Positions 50,884 through 61,032 of a stretch of 64,000 nt of DNA are shown in pieces. Origin of the DNA: Nitrospiraceae bacterium. Its GTDB lineage: Bacteria; Nitrospirota; Nitrospiria; Nitrospirales; Nitrospiraceae. The stretch lies in NCBI GenBank assembly GCA_050246315.1, contig JBFWWG010000003.1, positions 192,001 through 256,000 of the forward strand. The letters are read 5' to 3'. Each line of letters begins with the position of its first letter. Position 1 is the first letter of the stretch. A program made the translations under genes and the position numbers. Under the pieces are notes generated by a model, which saw only the letters and a program-made list of their open reading frames with translations, searched no databases and was not told the DNA's origin.

Positions 50884-51126
50884 ATGGCCAAAAAGACCAC
50901 TCGGTTGTTCTTCAGCGGGAATAGCCAGGCCGTCCGCATTCCGAAAGAGTTTCAGATGGAAGGCGATGAGGTCGAGATCCAGCGCAGGGGCAACACCCTT
51001 GTGCTCCGCCCCATGAAAAAGTCCTGGGCAGCGTTGACCGATAGCTTGAAGAACTTTACGCGAGACTTTATGGAAAGCGGACGGCAGCAGCCCCTCTCAC
51101 AGAAACGGAAGCGGCCCTTTTCATGA
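50884..51126 (+). CDS. vapB: AbrB-type antitoxin VapB
   Basis: LFFSGNSQAVRIPKEF motif. Confidence 0.92.
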   Translation: MAKKTTRLFFSGNSQAVRIPKEFQMEGDEVEIQRRGNTLVLRPMKKSWAALTDSLKNFTRDFMESGRQQPLSQKRKRPFS

Positions 51127-51524
51127 AGGTGATGCTGGACACCAACATCTGCATCTATCTCATCAAGAAGCAACCTCCTTCCGTGCTGGAACGTTTCACG
51201 GACCATCCGGTCGGCGACATCGGCATCTCGGTCATCACATTGGCAGAACTCGAATACGGTGCGAGCAAGAGCCGGCATCCGCTGCGAAATCGGCTGGCCC
51301 TTTACCAATTCATTACGCCACTGGAAGTGGCTGACCTCGATCGGAATGCAGCGACCACCTATGGAAGACTCCGTGCTTCTCTAGAGACCAAGGGCACAGT
51401 CGTCGGAGCAATGGACCTCTTGATCGCTGCCCACGCGATCTGCCTGGGAGTCAAGCTGGTGACCAACAATGTACGGGAGTTTCAGCGAATCCCTGGATTG
51501 CGAGTGGACAATTGGGTGTCGTGA
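51123..51524 (+). CDS. vapC: PIN-domain toxin VapC
   Basis: MLDTNICIY, AELEYG, DLLIAAHA, VTNNVREF; ATGA overlap with vapB. Confidence 0.94.
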   Translation: MKVMLDTNICIYLIKKQPPSVLERFTDHPVGDIGISVITLAELEYGASKSRHPLRNRLALYQFITPLEVADLDRNAATTYGRLRASLETKGTVVGAMDLLIAAHAICLGVKLVTNNVREFQRIPGLRVDNWVS

Positions 51525-51557
51525 CCGACAACAGAGGCTGAAACGGTGCTCATCACT

Positions 51558-52254
51558 ATGAAGATCCAATCAGTGACCTATAACAACCGCAAAACGGCGT
51601 TTCAGGTGAGAGGGTCCAAGAAGTCAATGCTGCTTCCCTATTCGAAGGTCGATCCTCAACCCAGTGCCGACGATCCCATTGCCAAGCTCTACGTGGACAG
51701 GGAGCTTGGGCGGGAAGGGTTCACCTATGTGTTGGCCTCGGGCAAAGAAGGGACCGTCCATAGTGAGCAGGTCCTGGAGTACAACCAGGATCCGAACTAT
51801 CTAGCCCGCATTATTCATGACGATGCGTCACGAAATGGCGGAGTCGCATGGCGAGACGGGCGTGCGGAGCCGCAAGGAAGGGAGGCAGACTTGAAACAGT
51901 CTGTTGACCGACCGAGCGGCGAGTCCGCCAGCCTGCACACCATGGACCCCGTGCGCAGGCTTGTCGCAGCGGCGAATCCGTCATTGCAGTAGAAACGTTC
52001 ATGAATATTGCGGACCAGGAGATGCCTTGTTGCATAAGTTGACGGACGAGGCGCAACGACGAACGAAGGTCAGTCCTTTATCAAAGCGTGAGATGATCCG
52101 CAGGCTCGGGACCTCCGCCACGCAACTCTATCGCTTGCTCGACCAGACCAACTACCGCAAGTCGATCGACCAACTCTTGGCCCTGCTGCACATATTGGAT
52201 TGCGATGTCGATGTACTCGTGCGAACAAAACGCTCGCCGAGCAAGGCCGTCTAA
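51558..52254 (+). pseudogene. Gene with C-terminal HTH, split by a MITE insertion
   Basis: Removing 51805-52018 restores one frame: ...EYNQDPNYL-G-DALLHKLT...SKREMIRRLGTSATQLYRLLD. Confidence 0.8.
51801..52018 (+). mobile_element. MITE-like element inserted at CTAG
   Basis: CTAGCCCGCATTATTCATGA...TCATGAATATTGCGGACCAG terminal inverted repeats; interrupts a reading frame. Confidence 0.88.
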
Positions 52255-52272
52255 TCTCCGAAGGCACGGGCA

Positions 52273-52437
52273 GTGAGAGAGCACGACGATTTCTCAAGAT
52301 TGAAGGGACGTAGGAATCCCTATATCCTGTCGTTGAAGCAGCCGATTACGATGGGACTGGGCGACTGTCGAAAACAGGCATCCGTGAAGAGGACAAGGAA
52401 GACATCTGGTCGGGCTCCGTTCGTGAGCGCTAAGTAG
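52273..52437 (+). pseudogene. Truncated BrnA/CopG-like antitoxin remnant
   Basis: MREHDDFSRLKGRRNPYILSLKQPITM resembles the N-terminus of that antitoxin family (from recall); the remainder looks unrelated. Confidence 0.45.
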
Positions 52438-52464
52438 ATGGCTTCATAAGTCAATTCTCATGCC

Positions 52465-52514
52465 TGACCCTCTACTCTGCTCCTCTACTCTGCTCATGAC
52501 CCTCTACTCTGCTC
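52465..52514. repeat. Three copies of CTCTACTCTGCTC
   Basis: Exact 13-mers at 52470, 52483 and 52502; first and third are preceded by TGACC. Confidence 0.85.
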
Positions 52515-52648
52515 CGAGCAAGGCCGCGTGATATCTGTAGGCGGATGAAGCGGAAGGGGACATCAGGAGAGGAGGCGGATCAACTGGGGAGCGACGCGGG
52601 AGCTGATACTCGGCGAGGAATGGCGCTCTGTGGACTATCGAGGAAACT

Positions 52649-52691
52649 CGCGATCGGGGCCGTCGGCTTTCGCCAATCGGCCCCGATCGCG
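52649..52691 (-). other. Strong hairpin downstream of the DGR template repeat
   Basis: CGCGATCGGGGCCG / CGGCCCCGATCGCG 14-bp stem. Confidence 0.7.
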
Positions 52692-52823
52692 CCACCCCAG
52701 GCCCTCTCTTCGGCGTTCCCGCGTCGGCGAGAGGCCGGGAAGCAGGCTCATGGACACCCGCTGCCTCACCCGGCCTGTCCGTGAACAGACCGGCTCCGGG
52801 CCGGCCAGAGCCGTGCGGGCGGA

Positions 52824-52944
52824 CTGGACAAGACGGAATCCCAGGTTGTTGTTCCGGTTGTCGGCATTGTTCCTGTTCCGGTTCGACGCACGGAGGTTCT
52901 CCGGTTTGTTGTTCCAGGACCCGCCGCGGATCACACGCTGGCCG
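52824..52944 (-). repeat. DGR template repeat (TR)
   Basis: 121-bp ungapped match to VR 54498-54618; 17 mismatches, all at TR adenines; 11 AAY codons. Confidence 0.96.
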
Positions 52945-54013
52945 TCTTGTGGCCCGCTCCCCTTGTGAACACGGCCTGGGAGAAGATCGCTCTGCGTAGA
53001 CCCTCCGTGTCGGCATGTTTCGCATGGCCGATCCAGCTCTGAATGGAGGCCACCATCATGGTCCATTCCAGGCGCCCGGTTCGATAGATCTGCGCCATCC
53101 GGCGGAATCGCCGTGCGAACCGATGACCGTTATCGTTCCGGAGCCGACGGTGCTCTGGATAGACGATGTACCCCAGGATATTGAGCCCGTCAACCGTGCG
53201 CGTCACGTGGGCCTTGTTGGGATGGGGTTGGAGCCGGTCGGTGGCAAGCCGCTCACGGACGGCTGCGCGAATGTCGGTCAGTCTGGCTTTATCGTCCCCC
53301 AGCACGACCAAATCATCCACGTAGCGCAGGTAGGGCCGGACGCGCAACCCCTGCTTGATGTAGTGATCCAGGTCGTCCAGGTAGAGATTGGCAAAAAATT
53401 GGCTCGTCAGGTTGCCGATGGGGATGCCCACCCGTCGTTCCCACGGCGTAAAGAGATTATCGCCGGCAAAATAGCATGGCTCGGTCCCCTGTCTTGGAGA
53501 CCCATCGATAATACGATCCAACAGGGCCAGGACGCACCTATCCTTGATACGCCGGCGAAGCTTCGCCTTGAGCAGCTCGTGATCGATGGAGGGGAAGTAC
53601 TGCCGGACGTCCATCTTCAAGACGTACCGATAGGTCTGCGCCCAGGCTTGATAGCGGTCCACCGCCGCATGGACGCCCTTGCCGTGACGGCAGGCATAGG
53701 AGTCGGCAATGAAGGTCCGGTCGAGCGGTGGCTCGATCACGTTCATGACCGCATGGTGCACGACCCGGTCGCGAAACGGTGCGGCGGCAATCACACGCGG
53801 CTTGCGTTCATAAATTGTGAACAGACGGTAGTCATCCGGCCGATAGGTCCCCTCCTGAAGCTCGCGCTGGAGCGACAGTACCTCCCCTTCAAGAGCAAGA
53901 CCAAAATCCGCGACGCCCTGACGACTCCGCTTGCCCCGCCGCGCCTTCCGATAGGCGGCGAGCAAATTCTCAAAACTGACCAGCCGCGGCCACAGTTCCC
54001 CGAGTCGTGTCAT
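52931..54013 (-). CDS. DGR reverse transcriptase
   Basis: 360 aa; FRDRVVHHA, GIPIGNLTSQFFANLYL (DGR-type SQ), YLRYVDD; no maturase or endonuclease domain; coupled to avd by ATGA overlap. Confidence 0.95.
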   Translation of the reverse strand: MTRLGELWPRLVSFENLLAAYRKARRGKRSRQGVADFGLALEGEVLSLQRELQEGTYRPDDYRLFTIYERKPRVIAAAPFRDRVVHHAVMNVIEPPLDRTFIADSYACRHGKGVHAAVDRYQAWAQTYRYVLKMDVRQYFPSIDHELLKAKLRRRIKDRCVLALLDRIIDGSPRQGTEPCYFAGDNLFTPWERRVGIPIGNLTSQFFANLYLDDLDHYIKQGLRVRPYLRYVDDLVVLGDDKARLTDIRAAVRERLATDRLQPHPNKAHVTRTVDGLNILGYIVYPEHRRLRNDNGHRFARRFRRMAQIYRTGRLEWTMMVASIQSWIGHAKHADTEGLRRAIFSQAVFTRGAGHKTASV

Positions 54014-54366
54014 ATGTTTTCTTGAGACGCAGCTCGACTACGGACCCAGCCGCCGATCTGCCGCCCGAGGTCATCAAGGAGTCTCGCTCCATGCTCGTAC
54101 TGCCGGATCGCCATAACTCCTAGTTCGTGGGCCAGCCGCCAGAGGTGGCGCACGACCTCCAGACGCAGATTCGCGCGATGCAACGGCACGTCCTTGTTCC
54201 GCGCATAGGCTGCCTCCACCAACAGCTCCAGCACCTCAAGCAATCCGGCTTCCAACCGCTCGCCCAATGTGAACCGCCGGGCACGGGGGAATTTATCGAG
54301 TTGCGGGATCAGCCACAGAAGCAAGTCATGACAGGATTGGACAGCTTGGGGGAGGCTGGTCGTCAT
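54010..54366 (-). CDS. avd: DGR accessory variability determinant (Avd, four-helix bundle)
   Basis: 118 aa; KFPRARRFTLGERL...GRQIGGW; immediately upstream of the RT. Confidence 0.9.
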   Translation of the reverse strand: MTTSLPQAVQSCHDLLLWLIPQLDKFPRARRFTLGERLEAGLLEVLELLVEAAYARNKDVPLHRANLRLEVVRHLWRLAHELGVMAIRQYEHGARLLDDLGRQIGGWVRSRAASQENI

Positions 54367-54401
54367 GTGCCGTCAACCTGAGCCGTTTAGGATTTCTCTG
54401 A

Positions 54402-54438
54402 CCGGCCCTCGCCCGATGTCGAATCGGGCGAGGGCCGG
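54402..54438. other. DGR target-recognition hairpin/cruciform downstream of VR
   Basis: Perfect 16-bp stem CCGGCCCTCGCCCGAT / ATCGGGCGAGGGCCGG with a 5-nt loop, 45 nt after the target stop codon. Confidence 0.8.
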
Positions 54439-54482
54439 CCTCTTTCGGAAGTGTAAAGGGTAAAAGGACAAAGGATAAAGGG

Positions 54483-56402
54483 TTATTCGGTCATGTCCTG
54501 GACAAGACGGAATCCCAGGTTGCCGTCCCGGAAGTCGGCATTGACCCCGTTCCGGTTCGACGCACGGAGGAGCTCCGGCCTGTCGACCCAGGACCCGCCG
54601 CGGAGCACACGCCGGCCGCAATCGCCTTTGCCCCCCTCGAGCCAAGCAGAGCCATCAGTCGGCGCCCCTTGATAATCATCGTGCCAGCAATCCTCCACCC
54701 ATTCCCACACATTCCCGCTCATATCATGCAGCTCAAAACTGTTTTTTGTCTTCTGCCCAACAGGGTCGGTGCGATCGGTGCCGTAGACTGCGTAATCCTT
54801 CAATTCTTGCGGTGACGAGGCTCCAGCCCACTTGTTGTTCTTCTCTCTGCCTCGCGCCGCATACTCCCACTCGGATTCGGTCGGAAGTCGATAGGCGTTC
54901 CCTGTTGCCCTGGACAGCCACTTGGCATAGTCTTTCGCCTCACCCCACGAGACATAGATCACGGGCCGTCTGTCACGACCCCAGCCTGCATCCCCTGGTC
55001 GCTGCCCACCTGCCAATTCCAGATACCGGTCATACTCTTCAAAGGTCACTTCGTATCTGCCCATCTTAAACCCATTGATCCGGACTTGGTGTTTCTCATC
55101 GTCACCCTGTTCATAGGTGCCTTCAGGAATCTCCACCATGGCTGGCTTAGCGACCTGCACAACACCAGAGCGAACCAGGAGACTGGATCCGACATATCGA
55201 ATCTCTTTCCACAGAAAAGCGACTGGCAAGCCAACCAGCGCCAGGATGAGGCCGGCACTTAAAAGCTGTACCGTGTGCTTCGCTCGGCGTTCATTCCAAC
55301 CCTGAATCCAATGCGCCACCTGCCCGACGAGATAATCATGCTTGAATTCGTACCAGTCTGTTCCTTGACGCTCTTCGTGGCGAAGGACTCCATTACCGGC
55401 AAGACTTGTGAGGATAGTCCGTATCCGCTGGTCGTTGGAGACGCGTAAGGTATCCCTTAGGTCTTCGATGGGTCGATAGCGTTTCGTATTATCGGGCGTC
55501 TTCAGTGCGTTAAGAATGCGGACCATTAACGGTTTCTGCGTCCGAGGCATCGAGTTCAATGGCTCGAACACGCTCTTCTCGAGTATGTCTTTGGCTTTCC
55601 CACATGCCTCATAGTCCGCAGGCGTGATTGCGCCTCCTCCTTGCGGCTGTCTTCTCTGAAACTCTCTCCACAGAGTCCAGCAGACAATTTGGAGTTTGAT
55701 CGGCGCAACTCTGCCTGATCCATCCTTCAGGTCTTCGATAAGCCGATCCACAAGGTCCGATTCATAGTCATACCCGACGACTCTCACAGGCATCTCAATC
55801 GCGCGACGCGCCTCTTGCGTTGCTAACGAGGTCAGCCGGACATTCGCATTGTTTTGAAAGATCGACGGGATGACCTCCCTGAACTCGTGCAGGTCGGCGA
55901 AGTAATCCTCACGGAGAGACAGCACGAGGAACACAGGAAGCTGCTCGTCGTATCGGACGAGCGCGACCTGACGAATAAACTCTTCCCTTAACTTTGGACT
56001 CTCACGGAAGACGATGAAAAATTCTTCAAACTGGTCGACAAAGACGACGAGTCGAATTTTCCTATCTTCGACGATTTTCGTGAGAAACCCATGGAGTTCC
56101 TTAGGCTGTCCGTCGACATTGAGTTCCTTCGACACGGCATCTTGGATCGAGGTGACGGGATTGCTTTCCAGTCTGGTATGGATGGTCTTATAGCCGAGCT
56201 TTTCGAGTTCCGGCCTGACCCCTGCGTTGATCAAGGACGTCTTGCCTGAGCCGGAAGGAGAAAATAAGACGAGCAGCCGTGAGGAAAGCACCTCGCCAAC
56301 CATTTTTTGAACTTCCTGCTCCCGTCCAAAAAACAAGTCCGCATCCTCAAGGCGGTAGTAATCCAGATATCGATAGGGAGACCTGACGGGTGTATCGTTC
56401 AC
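54483..56402 (-). CDS. DGR target: STAND-type (nSTAND1-like) NTPase + TM + FGE-sulfatase/CLec domain
   Basis: SPYRYLDYY..FFGRE, Walker A SPSGSGKT, Walker B VFVDQFEE, LSLREDY, YEFKHD; TM LLSAGLILALVGLPVAFLW; FGE motifs RLPTESEWEYAARG, DMSGNVWEW, RGGSW, GFRLV. Confidence 0.92.
   Translation of the reverse strand: MNDTPVRSPYRYLDYYRLEDADLFFGREQEVQKMVGEVLSSRLLVLFSPSGSGKTSLINAGVRPELEKLGYKTIHTRLESNPVTSIQDAVSKELNVDGQPKELHGFLTKIVEDRKIRLVVFVDQFEEFFIVFRESPKLREEFIRQVALVRYDEQLPVFLVLSLREDYFADLHEFREVIPSIFQNNANVRLTSLATQEARRAIEMPVRVVGYDYESDLVDRLIEDLKDGSGRVAPIKLQIVCWTLWREFQRRQPQGGGAITPADYEACGKAKDILEKSVFEPLNSMPRTQKPLMVRILNALKTPDNTKRYRPIEDLRDTLRVSNDQRIRTILTSLAGNGVLRHEERQGTDWYEFKHDYLVGQVAHWIQGWNERRAKHTVQLLSAGLILALVGLPVAFLWKEIRYVGSSLLVRSGVVQVAKPAMVEIPEGTYEQGDDEKHQVRINGFKMGRYEVTFEEYDRYLELAGGQRPGDAGWGRDRRPVIYVSWGEAKDYAKWLSRATGNAYRLPTESEWEYAARGREKNNKWAGASSPQELKDYAVYGTDRTDPVGQKTKNSFELHDMSGNVWEWVEDCWHDDYQGAPTDGSAWLEGGKGDCGRRVLRGGSWVDRPELLRASNRNGVNADFRDGNLGFRLVQDMTE
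54498..54618 (-). repeat. DGR variable repeat (VR)
   Basis: Encodes GRRVLRGGSWVDRPELLRASNRNGVNADFRDGNLGFRLVQ versus TR GQRVIRGGSWNNKPENLRASNRNRNNADNRNNNLGFRLVQ. Confidence 0.96.
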
Positions 56403-57283
56403 GGGGTCCTACGAATTCCGAGTTGGGGAACGTCGAGGGTAAACTTCACGGCAACTTTTCTGGCAAATTCGGTTAGGTCTTCGTCGAAGATCTGTATATT
56501 TCGTCGCAACCAGTATGATCGAATGAAATGCGACGGGCTCTTCATGAGGGCATAGGCCGTGATGGCTCTTGATCTCGCGGTTTGCGTGGAGAGCACCCCC
56601 TCCCAGATCACGCGAAAGTTCCAATCTTCGAGACTGTATCCCAGGAACAAGAGACTGCATTGTGGGATTACTTGCTTGCGGAAATATTCAGGCATTCCCT
56701 TATCGATGTCGGTCAGATTTGCCAAGTATTGAATGTAGTCCGATTGGGTAATGACAAGACTTTCGGGATCTTCGATCGTGCCATGCATCTTATGCATAAC
56801 GAGTTCTCGGTCGCGAAACTGGAATGGCCCCCTAAAATGACCGGTCCTTGGATCCAGCGGCTTATGGACATGCTTGGTCAGAATCCGACCTTGTGACGTA
56901 AGTGCAGTCTCCAAAAGCGTGTCGTAATTTGATGTCAGAATGATCTTGATGTGGTTCAGTTGGGAGAGCACAGTGTGGATGGGCCGTGGCTGACAAGGTA
57001 CCTGAAGCTGCTGCTGCAAAGCGCTTTCCAGCGGCTGTCTGTTGCCTCCATGGAAATAGACATGGTGCTCAGCGACTTTGGCAAGATCATAGGCCCCGTT
57101 TGCATATTGGCACTGTGCAGCTAAGACCTTTGCCAGCTCACCTCCGGTAGGAAGACCAGGATTCTGCGCTCCGTCTGTCCCAGGGTAAGCCGTGCAGGCG
57201 CCCGCACCCAGGAATACCACGCATTGTTGAGATTCAAGGGCGGTGAAGATGATGCTGAGATCCTGGTCAGCCAGCCCATTCAT
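56399..57283 (-). CDS. SIR2-like domain protein (candidate NADase)
   Basis: VFLGAGA, LPTG, TSNYD, KMHG, LFLGYSLEDWN; its stop overlaps the GTG start of the DGR target. Confidence 0.88.
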   Translation of the reverse strand: MNGLADQDLSIIFTALESQQCVVFLGAGACTAYPGTDGAQNPGLPTGGELAKVLAAQCQYANGAYDLAKVAEHHVYFHGGNRQPLESALQQQLQVPCQPRPIHTVLSQLNHIKIILTSNYDTLLETALTSQGRILTKHVHKPLDPRTGHFRGPFQFRDRELVMHKMHGTIEDPESLVITQSDYIQYLANLTDIDKGMPEYFRKQVIPQCSLLFLGYSLEDWNFRVIWEGVLSTQTARSRAITAYALMKSPSHFIRSYWLRRNIQIFDEDLTEFARKVAVKFTLDVPQLGIRRTP

Positions 57284-57757
57284 CACGGGACTCGCAACGG
57301 CTCTCGTTCGGTGAATCTGCTTTGGTTTTCATTGGGGGCATTGGAGATAGCTGTAGATGAGGCTGGACGAGTCGCTGGAGCAACTGAACGGCTGTCCCCA
57401 CACCAGCACCTCACAGATATGAGGTACGATCATTTCATACCACTGTGGCCAGCGCGTAGGCAGGTCAACGAATTATCTGCATCTGCCGATTGGGAGTCAA
57501 GCCAGCCGACTCATGGTTTCGACGAAATACATGTATTTCCGAAAGGTGACACGGTCGATCGGACGGGTCGTGCGGTCCAATGCCATTCTTAGTAGAATTT
57601 GCGAAGCGGTTTCCACCGTGAGCCCTGTCCAATTCTCCTCCTCACGAGGGTTCTCGGACGTGGGAGTAAACAGGGTAGTAAGAATGGGATATTCTGATTT
57701 TCTGACCGTGACCATTCGCTGTTCGTCTCCGGCAAACTAGAATGTCCTCAAGTTAGC

Positions 57758-57914
57758 CGGCTGGAACGGATGCGCGGTGAGGTTGGAGCGACGGCAGGAC
57801 CTGCCGTGATAGAGACGGGCGGTCACTGTTCGCGGCATCATGGCGCGACCGAACCCGTGCACCATTCGTCAGCCGACCACCTTTAGTCTTCCAGCGTCGA
57901 AATATCCCCCGCGT
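57758..57914 (+). repeat. Direct repeat copy A containing a duplicate of the acs 3' end
   Basis: 57828-57914 matches 59085-59171 ungapped (10 mismatches in 87 nt); both copies also begin with CGGCTGGAACGGATGCGCGG. Confidence 0.85.
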
Positions 57915-58028
57915 ACGGGCCTTGGCCTCAGCAGGTGATTCAGCAAGTGCCCGTGACTCCACCGGCGGCTTCACGATAGTTGCATTTTTGCAATTGTTGT
58001 CGGATAGTGAATGTTAGGAGAACGGAGT

Positions 58029-58933: not shown

Positions 58934-59171
58934 CGGCTGGAACGGATGCGCGGGGAGGGCGGCGCCATGGCAGAGGGTGCCGCTCGGCCAGCCTCAGCAA
59001 TCCCGAGCGCGACGACATGCGACGCCGCGTCGCAGTTTTATAGGAGCACTCGGCTAGACAGAAAAACACGCAAGAGCCGTCCAGGTTCGCTGCATCATGG
59101 CGCGACCGAACCCGCGCGCCGTTCGCCAGCCGACTGCCCTTAGTCTTCCAACGTCGAAATATCTCCCGCGT
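58934..59171 (+). repeat. Direct repeat copy B including the true acs 3' end
   Basis: Partner of 57758-57914; offset 1257 bp in the colinear part. Confidence 0.85.
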
Positions 59172-61032
59172 CCTGGCCCAACTCCTTCGCCTTCAGCACA
59201 CGGCGCATGATCTTGCCCGACCGCGTCTTGGGCAGCGAGGGTACAATATCGATCTCTGCCGGCACCGCGATCTTGCCCAACTCGGTCAGCACGTGGTTCT
59301 TGAGCGACTGAATCAGGTCCGTACTGTCCTGGTGTCCGTGCTTCAGAATCACGAAGGCCTTGATCGATTCGCCGACGGTTGCATGCGGCTTGCCGATGAC
59401 CGCCGCTTCCGCCACGGCCGGATGGCTCACGAGCGCGCTTTCCACTTCCGCCGTGCCGATCCGGTTGCCGGCCACCTTGATCACGTCGTCGGCCCGGCCC
59501 ATGAACCAGAGATACCCGTCTTCATCTTTCCGGCAGACATCGCCCGCGGTGTAGCAATTGGGAATGGTGTTCCAGTAGACCTTGTAGCGGTCCGGGTCTT
59601 TGTAGATCGTCCGCATCATGGCCGGCCAAGGTTTCTTCACCACGGCAAAGCCGCCGGCATTGGCCGGCAGGCTCTTTCCCTCCCGGTCCACGACATCCGC
59701 CTCTACTCCTAGAAACGGCCTCGTCGCCGAGCCAGGTTTGAGCGGCACGGAGGGGAGGGGCGTCACCAGAATCATGCCGGTCTCCGTCTGCCACCAGGTG
59801 TCCATGATCGGCTTGTCGCCGCCCGTCACGCGATGGAACCATTCCCAGGCTTCGGGGTTGATCGGTTCGCCCACGCTGCCGAGCACCCGCAGGCTGGCGA
59901 GGTCGTACTTTCTCGGCCAGTCCTCTCCATAGCGCATGAGCAATCGAATCGCCGTCGGCGTCGTATAAAACACCGTGACGCCGTAGCGGGCAATGATGTC
60001 CCACCAGCGGCCGGGGTTCGGATAATCCGGCTTGCCCTCGGCCGTCAGGATCGTGGCGCCGTTCAAGAGCGGTCCATAGACGATGTAACTGTGTCCCGTG
60101 ACCCAGCCCGGGTCGGCCACGCAGAAATAGAGATCGTCCTCTTTCAGATTGAACACGTACTTCGTCGTCAAGTAGGTCCCGACCATGTAGCCGCCGTGCA
60201 CATGGACGACACCCTTCGGCTTGCCGGTTGTGCCGGAGGTATAAAGAATGTACAGCGGGGTTTCCGAATCGAGTGGCTCGGCTTCGCAGACCGCAGGCTG
60301 ATCCCTCAGCCAGTCCTCCCAATCGATTTCCTTGGGCGCGGCGAGTGGCCCGCCGGGTTTCTCGCGTCGGACCACCACCACGTGCTCGACGGTCCGGCAG
60401 TGGGCCACCGCCTGATCGACGACCGGCTTCAGTTGAATCACCTTGGCTCGGTCGTACCCGACATCCGCCGTGATCACCAGTCGCGACTCGGCATCCTGAA
60501 TGCGACTTTCAAGGGCCGGCGCGCTGAAGCCGGAATAGACCACGCTATGGATCAAACCGAGACGCGCACAGGCCAGCATCGCGACCATTTGTTCGGGAAT
60601 CTTCGGCAGATAGATCGTGACCCGATCGCCCTTCCGCAACCCAAGCGCTTTGAGCGCGTTCGCGCAACGGCAGACCTGGCGATACAGCTCGGCATAGGTG
60701 AAAATGCGCTCCTCGCCCTTTTCGCCGACCCAAATAAGGGCGACCTTGTGGCGACGCCAGGTTTTGACGTGGCGATCGAGGCAGTTGTACGCCATGTTGC
60801 AGGTCCCGCCGACGAACCATTGGGCCCAGGGATACTTCCATTCCAACACCTGCTTCCAGGGAGTGAACCAGTCGAGTTCCTTGGCCGCCTGCTCCCAAAA
60901 GGCCTCGGGGTTCTGGATCGACAGCCGATAGGCTGTCTCGTAGTCCGGGATGTAGGTCGAGGCGACGGTTTCGTGATTCGGTCGGTAGACGCGGGCTTCC
61001 TTCAACAGCGTATCCACTTTATCGTCGGCCAT
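59140..61032 (-). CDS. acs: Acetyl-CoA synthetase
   Basis: YTSGTTGKPKG, DTWWQTETG, PKTRSGKIMRR. Confidence 0.96.
   Translation of the reverse strand: MADDKVDTLLKEARVYRPNHETVASTYIPDYETAYRLSIQNPEAFWEQAAKELDWFTPWKQVLEWKYPWAQWFVGGTCNMAYNCLDRHVKTWRRHKVALIWVGEKGEERIFTYAELYRQVCRCANALKALGLRKGDRVTIYLPKIPEQMVAMLACARLGLIHSVVYSGFSAPALESRIQDAESRLVITADVGYDRAKVIQLKPVVDQAVAHCRTVEHVVVVRREKPGGPLAAPKEIDWEDWLRDQPAVCEAEPLDSETPLYILYTSGTTGKPKGVVHVHGGYMVGTYLTTKYVFNLKEDDLYFCVADPGWVTGHSYIVYGPLLNGATILTAEGKPDYPNPGRWWDIIARYGVTVFYTTPTAIRLLMRYGEDWPRKYDLASLRVLGSVGEPINPEAWEWFHRVTGGDKPIMDTWWQTETGMILVTPLPSVPLKPGSATRPFLGVEADVVDREGKSLPANAGGFAVVKKPWPAMMRTIYKDPDRYKVYWNTIPNCYTAGDVCRKDEDGYLWFMGRADDVIKVAGNRIGTAEVESALVSHPAVAEAAVIGKPHATVGESIKAFVILKHGHQDSTDLIQSLKNHVLTELGKIAVPAEIDIVPSLPKTRSGKIMRRVLKAKELGQDAGDISTLED

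Follow-up and report, generated by a model that had tools for sequence, protein, structure and literature searches.

The stretch of DNA analysed here, 64,000 nucleotides (nt) long and called the window throughout (G000:C3:192001-256000; C4, C5, C14 and C18 denote other contigs of the same genome), carries a genuine and complete diversity-generating retroelement (DGR) of the avd-RT-TR type, in which the accessory gene avd, the reverse transcriptase (RT) gene and the template repeat (TR) follow in that order. All parts of the cassette are on the minus strand, arranged as one packed operon: a SIR2-like effector gene, a target gene holding the variable repeat (VR), a hairpin, avd, the RT gene, the TR and a structured non-coding RNA 3' of it. 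The SIR2-like gene (56399..57286; 295 amino acids (aa); Pfam SIR2_2, 3.5e-25) overlaps the start of the target gene with its last 4 nt. The target gene (54483..56402; 639 aa) encodes an nSTAND1 NTPase, a hydrophobic helix and an FGE-sulfatase/C-type lectin (CLec) domain, and is separated from avd by an intergenic stretch of 116 nt with a CCTTT-rich tract (54439-54482) and an inverted repeat. Downstream, avd (54010..54366; 118 aa; Pfam bAvd, 9.4e-17) shares 4 nt with the start of the intact RT gene (52931..54013; 360 aa; Pfam RVT_1, 8.1e-19).

The RT carries IGNLTSQ in domain 4 and YVDD in domain 5, and these motifs satisfy the signatures (I/V/L)GxxxSQ and YxDD reported for DGR RTs (PMC3521204; this and most other published work is cited here from excerpts). 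The Avd protein scored 97.1 bits against NCBIfam NF033474 (DivGenRetAVD), for which the cut-off is 80, and no solved relative was found for it by sequence at E <= 0.01. The best solved relative of the RT is 8ub7 (E 3.3e-53), an entry labelled only 'Reverse transcriptase' in our table and presumably the bRT of the Bordetella phage BPP-1, with a group II intron RT far behind (6.8e-21). A scan of 52300-57900 for terminators returned five terminator-like sites against 4.7 expected.

An earlier note on this DNA had aligned 52824-52944 by hand with 54498-54618 and reported mismatches confined to adenines. The recomputed ungapped alignment (offset 1674) reproduces that count exactly, with 17 mismatches in 121 columns, each of them a T on the plus strand of the TR and hence an adenine on the coding (minus) strand. 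Of such adenines the TR holds 32, and none of the remaining 89 positions differs between the two copies, an arrangement with a hypergeometric P of 2.6e-12. The TR (TR1; 52824..52944, minus strand) has its first 14 nt in common with the end of the RT gene (four codons and the stop), and the VR (VR1; 54498..54618, minus strand) encodes the last ~45 residues of the target protein, whose stop codon lies 13 nt beyond. From TR1 to VR1, ten coding-strand adenines become G, five become T and two become C, the homology stops abruptly at either end, and an independent repeat search of the region returned the pair as its top and largest direct repeat (D1, 86%).

At the protein level, eleven residues change between TR1 and VR1 (for example, WNNKPEN to WVDRPEL and NRNNN to FRDGN), as the earlier note had it, and 30 of the 32 TR adenines occupy codon position 1 or 2. 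Its count of 11 AAY codons also holds, but the derived figure of 15^11 variants covers those codons only. When all A-containing TR codons are included, the number of stop-free protein variants rises to 5.3e17, an upper limit, since every VR copy examined leaves two adenines of the final 22 nt of the repeat unvaried.

Searching the rest of the genome for further VRs matching TR1, a check that the earlier note had proposed, revealed one, at C14:41788-41908. All 18 of its mismatches to TR1 fall on adenines and none of the 89 non-A positions is changed (P = 3.7e-13); it also matches TR1 at 10/10 of the non-A positions that are diagnostic for TR1 versus TR2, the template of a second DGR described below. 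This remote VR ends a 470-aa gene with a TIR domain, a transmembrane (TM) helix and an FGE domain (TIR-TM-FGE) but without the NTPase. The 240 nt upstream of VR1 and of the C14 VR are 73% identical. The two VRs themselves agree at all 89 non-A positions and disagree at 20 of the 32 A positions, and it follows that adenine-specific change took place after they last shared a sequence. Separately, the last ~100 nt upstream of the VR (54619-54720 versus G000:C14:41909-42010) are near-identical and the sequence farther upstream has diverged, a pattern suggesting that the C3 and C14 paralogues have exchanged the VR-bearing end, by recombination or as a module.

The second DGR, at G000:C5:64279-68838 (L012:4279-8838), is likewise intact and comprises a TIR-nSTAND1-FGE target (962 aa), avd, an RT with 79% identity to that of the window, and TR2. 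TR2 differs from its own cis VR at eight non-A positions. Its remote target on C4 (L014:7024-7144) has 15 A mismatches, matches TR2 at 10/10 diagnostic non-A positions and departs from it at four further non-A positions, all within the first 7 nt at the edge, with the homologous part perfect; the C5 hub thus appears to keep its trans target better than its cis target. A further VR, on a DUF4062-nSTAND1-FGE gene of C18, shows nine non-A mismatches. The genome also holds relics: a TR-like sequence at C14:40478-40598 (in L013) that retains the conserved 3' RNA, lies next to the remote VR and has neither avd nor RT; an RT fragment at C4; and avd fragments at C18 and C14:18690. The last of these, 31 aa long (84% identity), belongs to a diverged sixth FGE gene end (C14:18690-19431) whose hairpin is degenerate. 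The TR relic was considered as a donor for the imperfect C5 and C18 VRs and was rejected, because it fits worse (14 and 27 non-A mismatches, respectively).

Just 3' of TR1 lies the structured, Sp (spacer)-like non-coding RNA (52655..52823, minus strand), whose first element is a bulged stem-loop (~52768-52801), ~22 nt after the TR, and which has a terminal hairpin. These ~170 nt are conserved in 18 sequences, namely those following TR1, TR2 and a TR relic and those of 15 related loci of other organisms. The RNAalifold consensus of the 18 contains 23 pairs, 11 of them with compensatory changes; 93.2% of cells are paired, compared with 35-52% when the partners are slid by 1-3 columns, and none of 500 shuffles reached the covariation score. 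As a single sequence the element folds with z = -4.2, and 0/200 shuffles were as stable. An Rfam scan of 51500-58000 at E <= 1 gave two sub-threshold chance matches only and no family for either the 3' RNA or the hairpin. In BPP-1, Avd is bound by a non-coding spacer located 3' of the TR, which also provides the site of priming (PMC6182149), and Avd-binding stem-loops just downstream of the TR have been predicted in 207 of 278 Avd-containing DGRs (10.1101/2023.10.23.563531); by analogy, 52768-52801 is a candidate Avd-binding stem-loop. Because the prototype and other Avd DGRs have such a counterpart, the structure was expected and is not new, and it supports a functional cassette.

The inverted repeat after the target gene (54402..54438, GGCCCTCGCCCGAT / ATCGGGCGAGGGCC) forms a perfect, GC-rich 16-bp stem with a 5-nt loop, 59 nt beyond where the VR ends, and is a candidate target-recognition hairpin or cruciform. 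In the 4.39-Mb genome it is confined to VR-type gene ends, perfect on C3, C4 and C5 and degenerate on C18 and at C14:18690, which indicates that it is neither a general repeat nor a general terminator here; on the coding strand it is not followed by a run of T, and we do not call it a terminator. Perfect stems of at least 8 bp were found after 10 of 25 VRs in related loci. Inverted repeats downstream of the VR enhance homing in BPP-1, and in phage DGRs they have 7-10-bp stems and 4-nt GRNA loops located 4-34 bp from the VR (PMC3240598); downstream inverted repeats occur in 34% of DGRs (PMC5758913). We also observed that the loop at 54420-54424 reads TCGAC on the coding strand and that the one after the C5 VR (G000:C5:67241-67245) reads GTCGA, its reverse complement; the palindrome has been flipped in one of these otherwise identical perfect hairpins.

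The protein in which VR1 lies has a clear modular layout. The nSTAND1 NTPase spans aa 9-367 (~55302-56378; Pfam 1.4e-52), followed by a hydrophobic helix at aa 380-398 (~55209-55265; Kyte-Doolittle 19-residue maximum 2.29, preceded by RRAKH) and by the FGE-sulfatase/CLec domain at aa 420-634 (~54501-55145; Pfam 8.1e-47), which contains the VR. Solved relatives of this last domain include the variable protein of the Treponema denticola DGR, TvpA (2y3c, E 1.2e-20). The union of nSTAND1 and FGE-sulfatase in one VR-holding open reading frame (ORF) is true of three further paralogues as well, and in four of the five paralogous targets a single, strongly hydrophobic helix, its N-terminal flank carrying basic residues, separates the NTPase or TIR module from the CLec domain. 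According to the positive-inside rule, the basic flank of a membrane helix faces the cytoplasm, and the variable CLec domain would consequently face the periplasm. We thus predict a single membrane helix and an outward, periplasmic variable domain.

The putative effectors vary across the five paralogues, with SIR2 as a separate gene on C3, TIR in three (C5, C4 and C14) and DUF4062 in one (C18), these last two domains being N-terminal. Judged from its domains, the system of the window has the order of an NLR-like sensor, that is, an effector, a STAND NTPase and a hypervariable C-terminal CLec domain. The target gene is moreover translationally coupled to the SIR2 gene. From this domain order and coupling we infer that ligand binding could drive STAND oligomerisation and NAD+ depletion by SIR2, and a role of the pair in a conflict or immunity response is plausible by analogy, with the ligand and the SIR2 output both putative. 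In PADLOC, the best match of the SIR2 protein was to the SIR2 part of ThsA (2.1e-23), and its domain resembles the NADase part of that Thoeris protein. Membership of Thoeris was rejected: the match covers only profile positions 14-227 of 478, there is no adjacent ThsB, and the neighbouring gene is the STAND-CLec target.

A working DGR need not serve immunity, and of the alternatives weighed here the one that survives best is a target engaged in kin or self recognition, in floc or biofilm aggregation or in signalling, with SIR2 as a regulator or uncoupled from it. PMC10907252 itself offers kin recognition as an alternative, and the excerpted text states that no DGR-STAND-CLec protein has been characterised experimentally; no PADLOC model matches the target protein, and the hosts live in flocs or biofilms, judging from run labels such as sludge, bioreactor and wastewater. 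Set against this are the effector set of SIR2, three TIR domains and DUF4062, which is typical of abortive-infection systems, and the position of the locus among toxin-antitoxin modules. A non-immune role is a real but minority possibility.

Evidence on whether the element is still at work came from public metagenomes. The region 52700-55200 was present at 91-97% of sampled words in 20 runs from seven studies, labelled as landfill, wastewater, bioreactor, aquatic and sludge metagenomes, and four runs from four studies (X1, X8, X12 and X20) were compared as contigs at 85% likeness. All four runs contained contigs at 0 differences for the TR (records 1, 11, 18 and 25), for the RT and avd genes (records 4-6, 13, 15, 20, 22, 27 and 28) and for the target body beyond the VR (records 8, 16, 24 and 31). 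VR1, in contrast to these identical flanks, was identical to that of the window in X1 only (record 7), and X8 held a second allele (record 30) with 15 differences and no gaps over 54460-54635. The C14 locus appeared as one contig in each of X8, X12 and X20, recognised by the joint 52933>54441, whose spacing of 1145 nt is the distance between the TR relic and the VR on C14, and its VR allele differs from that of this genome at no fewer than nine places. In X1 there is additionally a minor variant, at 54571 and 54586, with a depth of 8.5 against 20.7. Among the differences listed, 16 of 16 variable places within 54498-54618 fall on TR-adenine positions.

These contigs also bear on how far the variation extends. 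The last 25 nt of the repeat, with four adenines, are unchanged in both TR1-matching VRs of the genome (VR1 and C14). One of those adenines, 54521, varies in the C14-locus contig of X8, X12 and X20, and the stretch with no observed variation is thus 22 nt long with two adenines. For X12 and X20, no VR1-locus allele is among the contigs listed, the depth at 54521-54572 is all C14-like, and we draw no conclusion from them on VR1. Contig breaks at 54421-54482 and 54618/54684, which coincide in each of the four runs with the hairpin and the edge of the VR, were not counted as evidence, since paralogous repeats could equally cause them. In a metagenome contig collection, an exact 40-nt pattern from the target body gave 0 matches, and a scan with the RT protein gave at best 87% identity among the 80 loci kept, none of them near-identical.

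The earlier note had taken the lack of non-A drift as a sign of recent mutagenic retrohoming, a proposal strengthened by the remote VR with its zero non-A differences and by VR alleles that differ between metagenomes on identical flanks. The evidence for recent or ongoing DGR activity is good but not conclusive. Mutagenic homing might instead lie in the past, the element being a fossil and the VR alleles in the metagenomes old standing variation between strains. Decay is indeed visible in this genome, in the RT fragment on C4, the avd fragments on C18 and at C14:18690 and the TR relic at C14:40478-40598, as well as in the eight non-A mismatches of the cis VR of the second DGR; in addition, one C14 VR allele is common to three studies, which implies that turnover is not fast everywhere. 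Against a dead element, the RT, Avd, TR and 3' RNA of the window are intact, the first three being identical in four studies; two VRs show no non-A difference in 89 positions despite flanks of 73% identity; different VR alleles sit on flanks with 0 differences; and X1 contains a minor second allele beside the main one. We therefore consider a fossil DGR unlikely.

Several points weigh against our reading of the locus as an active DGR rewriting an immune-type sensor, beyond the shared C14 allele just mentioned. The metagenomic data are assembled contigs and not reads, in which rare variants are hidden and paralogues are mixed at 85% likeness; the confinement to adenines is seen among the differences listed only, which for the VR1 allele of X8 means five of 15; and X1, in which the VR1 allele is that of the window, may be the sample of origin. 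A sigma-70 scan of 52300-57900 found two promoter-like sites against 2.5 expected by chance, and the one upstream of SIR2 is no better than chance. At the TR and VR ends we see no initiation of mutagenic homing (IMH) sequence in the form of a GC-rich 14-mer, and IMH does not differ from IMH* before the sharp break in homology; the two are also identical in some other DGRs (PMC5758913). The remote C14 VR has no downstream hairpin and is still a perfect TR1 target, which makes the hairpin dispensable or only stimulatory and its role putative. Finally, the membrane topology comes from a hydropathy window alone, and DGR CLec-STAND proteins, their immune role included, are described as not yet experimentally characterised (PMC10907252, in excerpt).

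The nearest relatives of the RT among species-representative genomes are from Nitrospira and Nitrospiraceae metagenome-assembled genomes (MAGs; 77-83% identity), with those from Competibacteraceae and other Pseudomonadota next (64-66%), and RT relatives at 49-83% identity carry A-biased TR/VR pairs. From these relatives and the run labels the host may be a Nitrospira-like nitrifier, a weak assignment because DGRs move horizontally. In the 25 best loci (L016-L040) we looked for repeats without gaps, the minimum being 60 nt and five mismatches. In 19 of these loci we found a TR/VR pair with at least 80% of the mismatches at A on the RT strand, and in 18 of these 19 the TR starts at or just after the end of the RT gene; the other six loci, several of which are short contigs, yielded no such repeat. 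The avd-RT-TR order corresponds to architecture B2 of Wu et al. (PMC5758913). Loci L021-L035 (RTs of 64-66% identity) show the same layout in MAGs of Competibacteraceae and other Pseudomonadota, several of them from activated sludge, and five (L024, L027, L028, L029 and L031) have a second VR downstream of the TR, observations that fit a lineage of DGRs spreading horizontally within wastewater communities.

This recurrence, together with the two P values given above and a TR copy that is non-coding in that frame context and lies directly after the RT gene, effectively refutes already the notion that TR1 and VR1 are ordinary paralogous duplicates, arisen by chance or recombination, whose differences hit adenines by accident, even though the near-identical ~100 nt upstream of the C3 and C14 VRs indicate that paralogues do recombine here.

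Taken together, the locus is very probably a complete, recently or currently active avd-RT-TR DGR that rewrites a STAND sensor paired with a SIR2 effector. On this reading, the minus-strand operon would be transcribed from SIR2 through the target, avd, RT and TR to the structured 3' RNA, and a complex of RT and Avd would bind that RNA and copy the TR into cDNA, with random bases placed opposite template adenines during synthesis. The cDNA would then take the place of the 121-nt VR, its homologue at the target gene's 3' end, re-randomising up to ~18 codons (11 of them AAY) in the presumed ligand-binding face of the C-terminal FGE/CLec domain. The same TR would service a second VR in trans, that of the TIR-TM-FGE gene on the other contig. 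Binding of a ligand by the variable domain might finally lead to STAND oligomerisation and then to depletion of NAD+ by SIR2.

Among published elements, the closest parallels are the 'clade 5D' DGRs, whose targets combine nSTAND1 or NACHT with CLec and sometimes TIR (PMC10907252), and the DGR-linked conflict systems for which an NLR-like logic has been described (PMC7159879). As in DGR 3 and DGR 6 of Thiohalocapsa PB-PSB1 (PMC10907252) and in the systems of PMC7159879, a central nSTAND1 domain is joined to an FGE-type CLec domain that is C-terminal and holds the VR, paralogous targets bear effector domains (TIR, for example), and there are several targets per genome. Diversification in trans and decay of redundant cassettes have also been reported (PMC10907252), some VRs matching a TR elsewhere at all non-adenine sites, as the C14 VR does here. 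The present locus departs from these DGRs in having its effector as a separate, overlapping SIR2 gene (the term 'SIR2' does not occur in PMC10907252), in the single hydrophobic helix between NTPase and CLec in four of the five targets, and in a host that appears to be a Nitrospira-like nitrifier and not one of the multicellular bacteria described.

The comparison with the prototype BPP-1 DGR (PMC3240598, PMC6182149, 10.1101/2023.10.23.563531, in excerpts) shows the same RT and Avd with adenine-specific transfer from TR to VR, a VR at the 3' end of a CLec-fold gene with an inverted repeat downstream, and a structured non-coding RNA 3' of the TR with a bulged stem-loop. The order of the parts differs, being avd-TR-RT in BPP-1 and avd-RT-TR here, where the Sp-like RNA follows the end of the operon instead of preceding the RT gene. 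Unlike the phage hairpins described above, that of the window has a 16-bp stem and a 5-nt loop and lies 59 nt from the VR. Further differences from BPP-1 are the lack of an evident GC-rich IMH, a cellular target in place of a phage tail fibre, and the presence of a remote target. With the Treponema denticola TvpA DGR the locus shares the FGE-sulfatase subtype of CLec with a C-terminal VR. The Treponema element, which has multiple non-adjacent targets, belongs to the HRDC-containing architecture C (PMC5758913, in excerpt), whereas here avd is the accessory gene and NTPase or TIR modules are found on the targets.

With respect to defence systems, the order of effector, STAND NTPase and C-terminal sensor recalls Avs and other bacterial NLR-like defence proteins; unlike in Avs, the sensor would be a DGR-diversified CLec domain in place of repeats. 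Published counterparts exist for every element found here, from the TR/VR pair with its adenine-specific differences, the B2 order of genes, the 3' RNA and the hairpin to the STAND-CLec target, the target served in trans and the cassettes in decay, and the field is not changed by this locus, its kind (STAND-CLec DGRs, trans targets, decaying duplicate cassettes) being already in print. A full-text literature search for 'diversity-generating retroelement' together with 'Nitrospira', which covered main article texts, returned no paper about a Nitrospira DGR; Nitrospirae are listed among DGR hosts in PMC3521204 (excerpted), and Ca. Magnetobacterium is named in 10.1101/2020.04.01.020958.

The surroundings of the cassette offered some observations of their own. 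The locus sits in a stretch rich in toxin-antitoxin genes: HicAB and a Phd-type antitoxin lie to one side of it, a MazE-like/PIN pair to the other. The latter pair (50884-51524; a MazE-like antitoxin of 80 aa and a PIN-domain toxin of 133 aa) is followed by a 148-aa ORF without a family and a helix-turn-helix ORF, all lying between riboflavin synthase and the DGR. On the other side, the last nine codons of acetyl-CoA synthetase (acs; ..AGDISTLED*) and ~150 nt downstream are duplicated at 57758-57921 and 58934-59178 with 80-87% identity, and HicB/HicA and the Phd-type antitoxin gene sit between the two acs 3'-end copies; this duplication looks like an old insertion bordering the SIR2-DGR block. 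At 52465-52515, ~140 nt beyond the end of the 3' RNA of the TR, a 19-nt unit, TGACCCTCTACTCTGCTCC, is present three times, in tandem or overlapping, at spacings of 13 and 19 nt.

For the genome as a whole, we tentatively propose, as a speculative picture that is less likely than not, that the two intact DGR hubs on C3 and C5 maintain at least 4-5 membrane-spanning NLR-like receptors with periplasmic hypervariable CLec domains, each equipped with a different death effector (SIR2, TIR or DUF4062), and that their former private cassettes have decayed, the VRs now being serviced in trans. Since the strain recurs in seven studies, allele turnover could be followed in public wastewater metagenomes, and in practical terms the locus is a natural test bed for DGR turnover and for selection on a putative immune sensor. 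The compact pair of SIR2 and STAND-TM-CLec proteins would suit a first functional test of this class of sensors. The host would be a bacterium important for nitrification; if the proposed arrangement of hubs and receptors is true, it would amount to an anticipatory, extracytoplasmic repertoire of immune receptors in a nitrifier.

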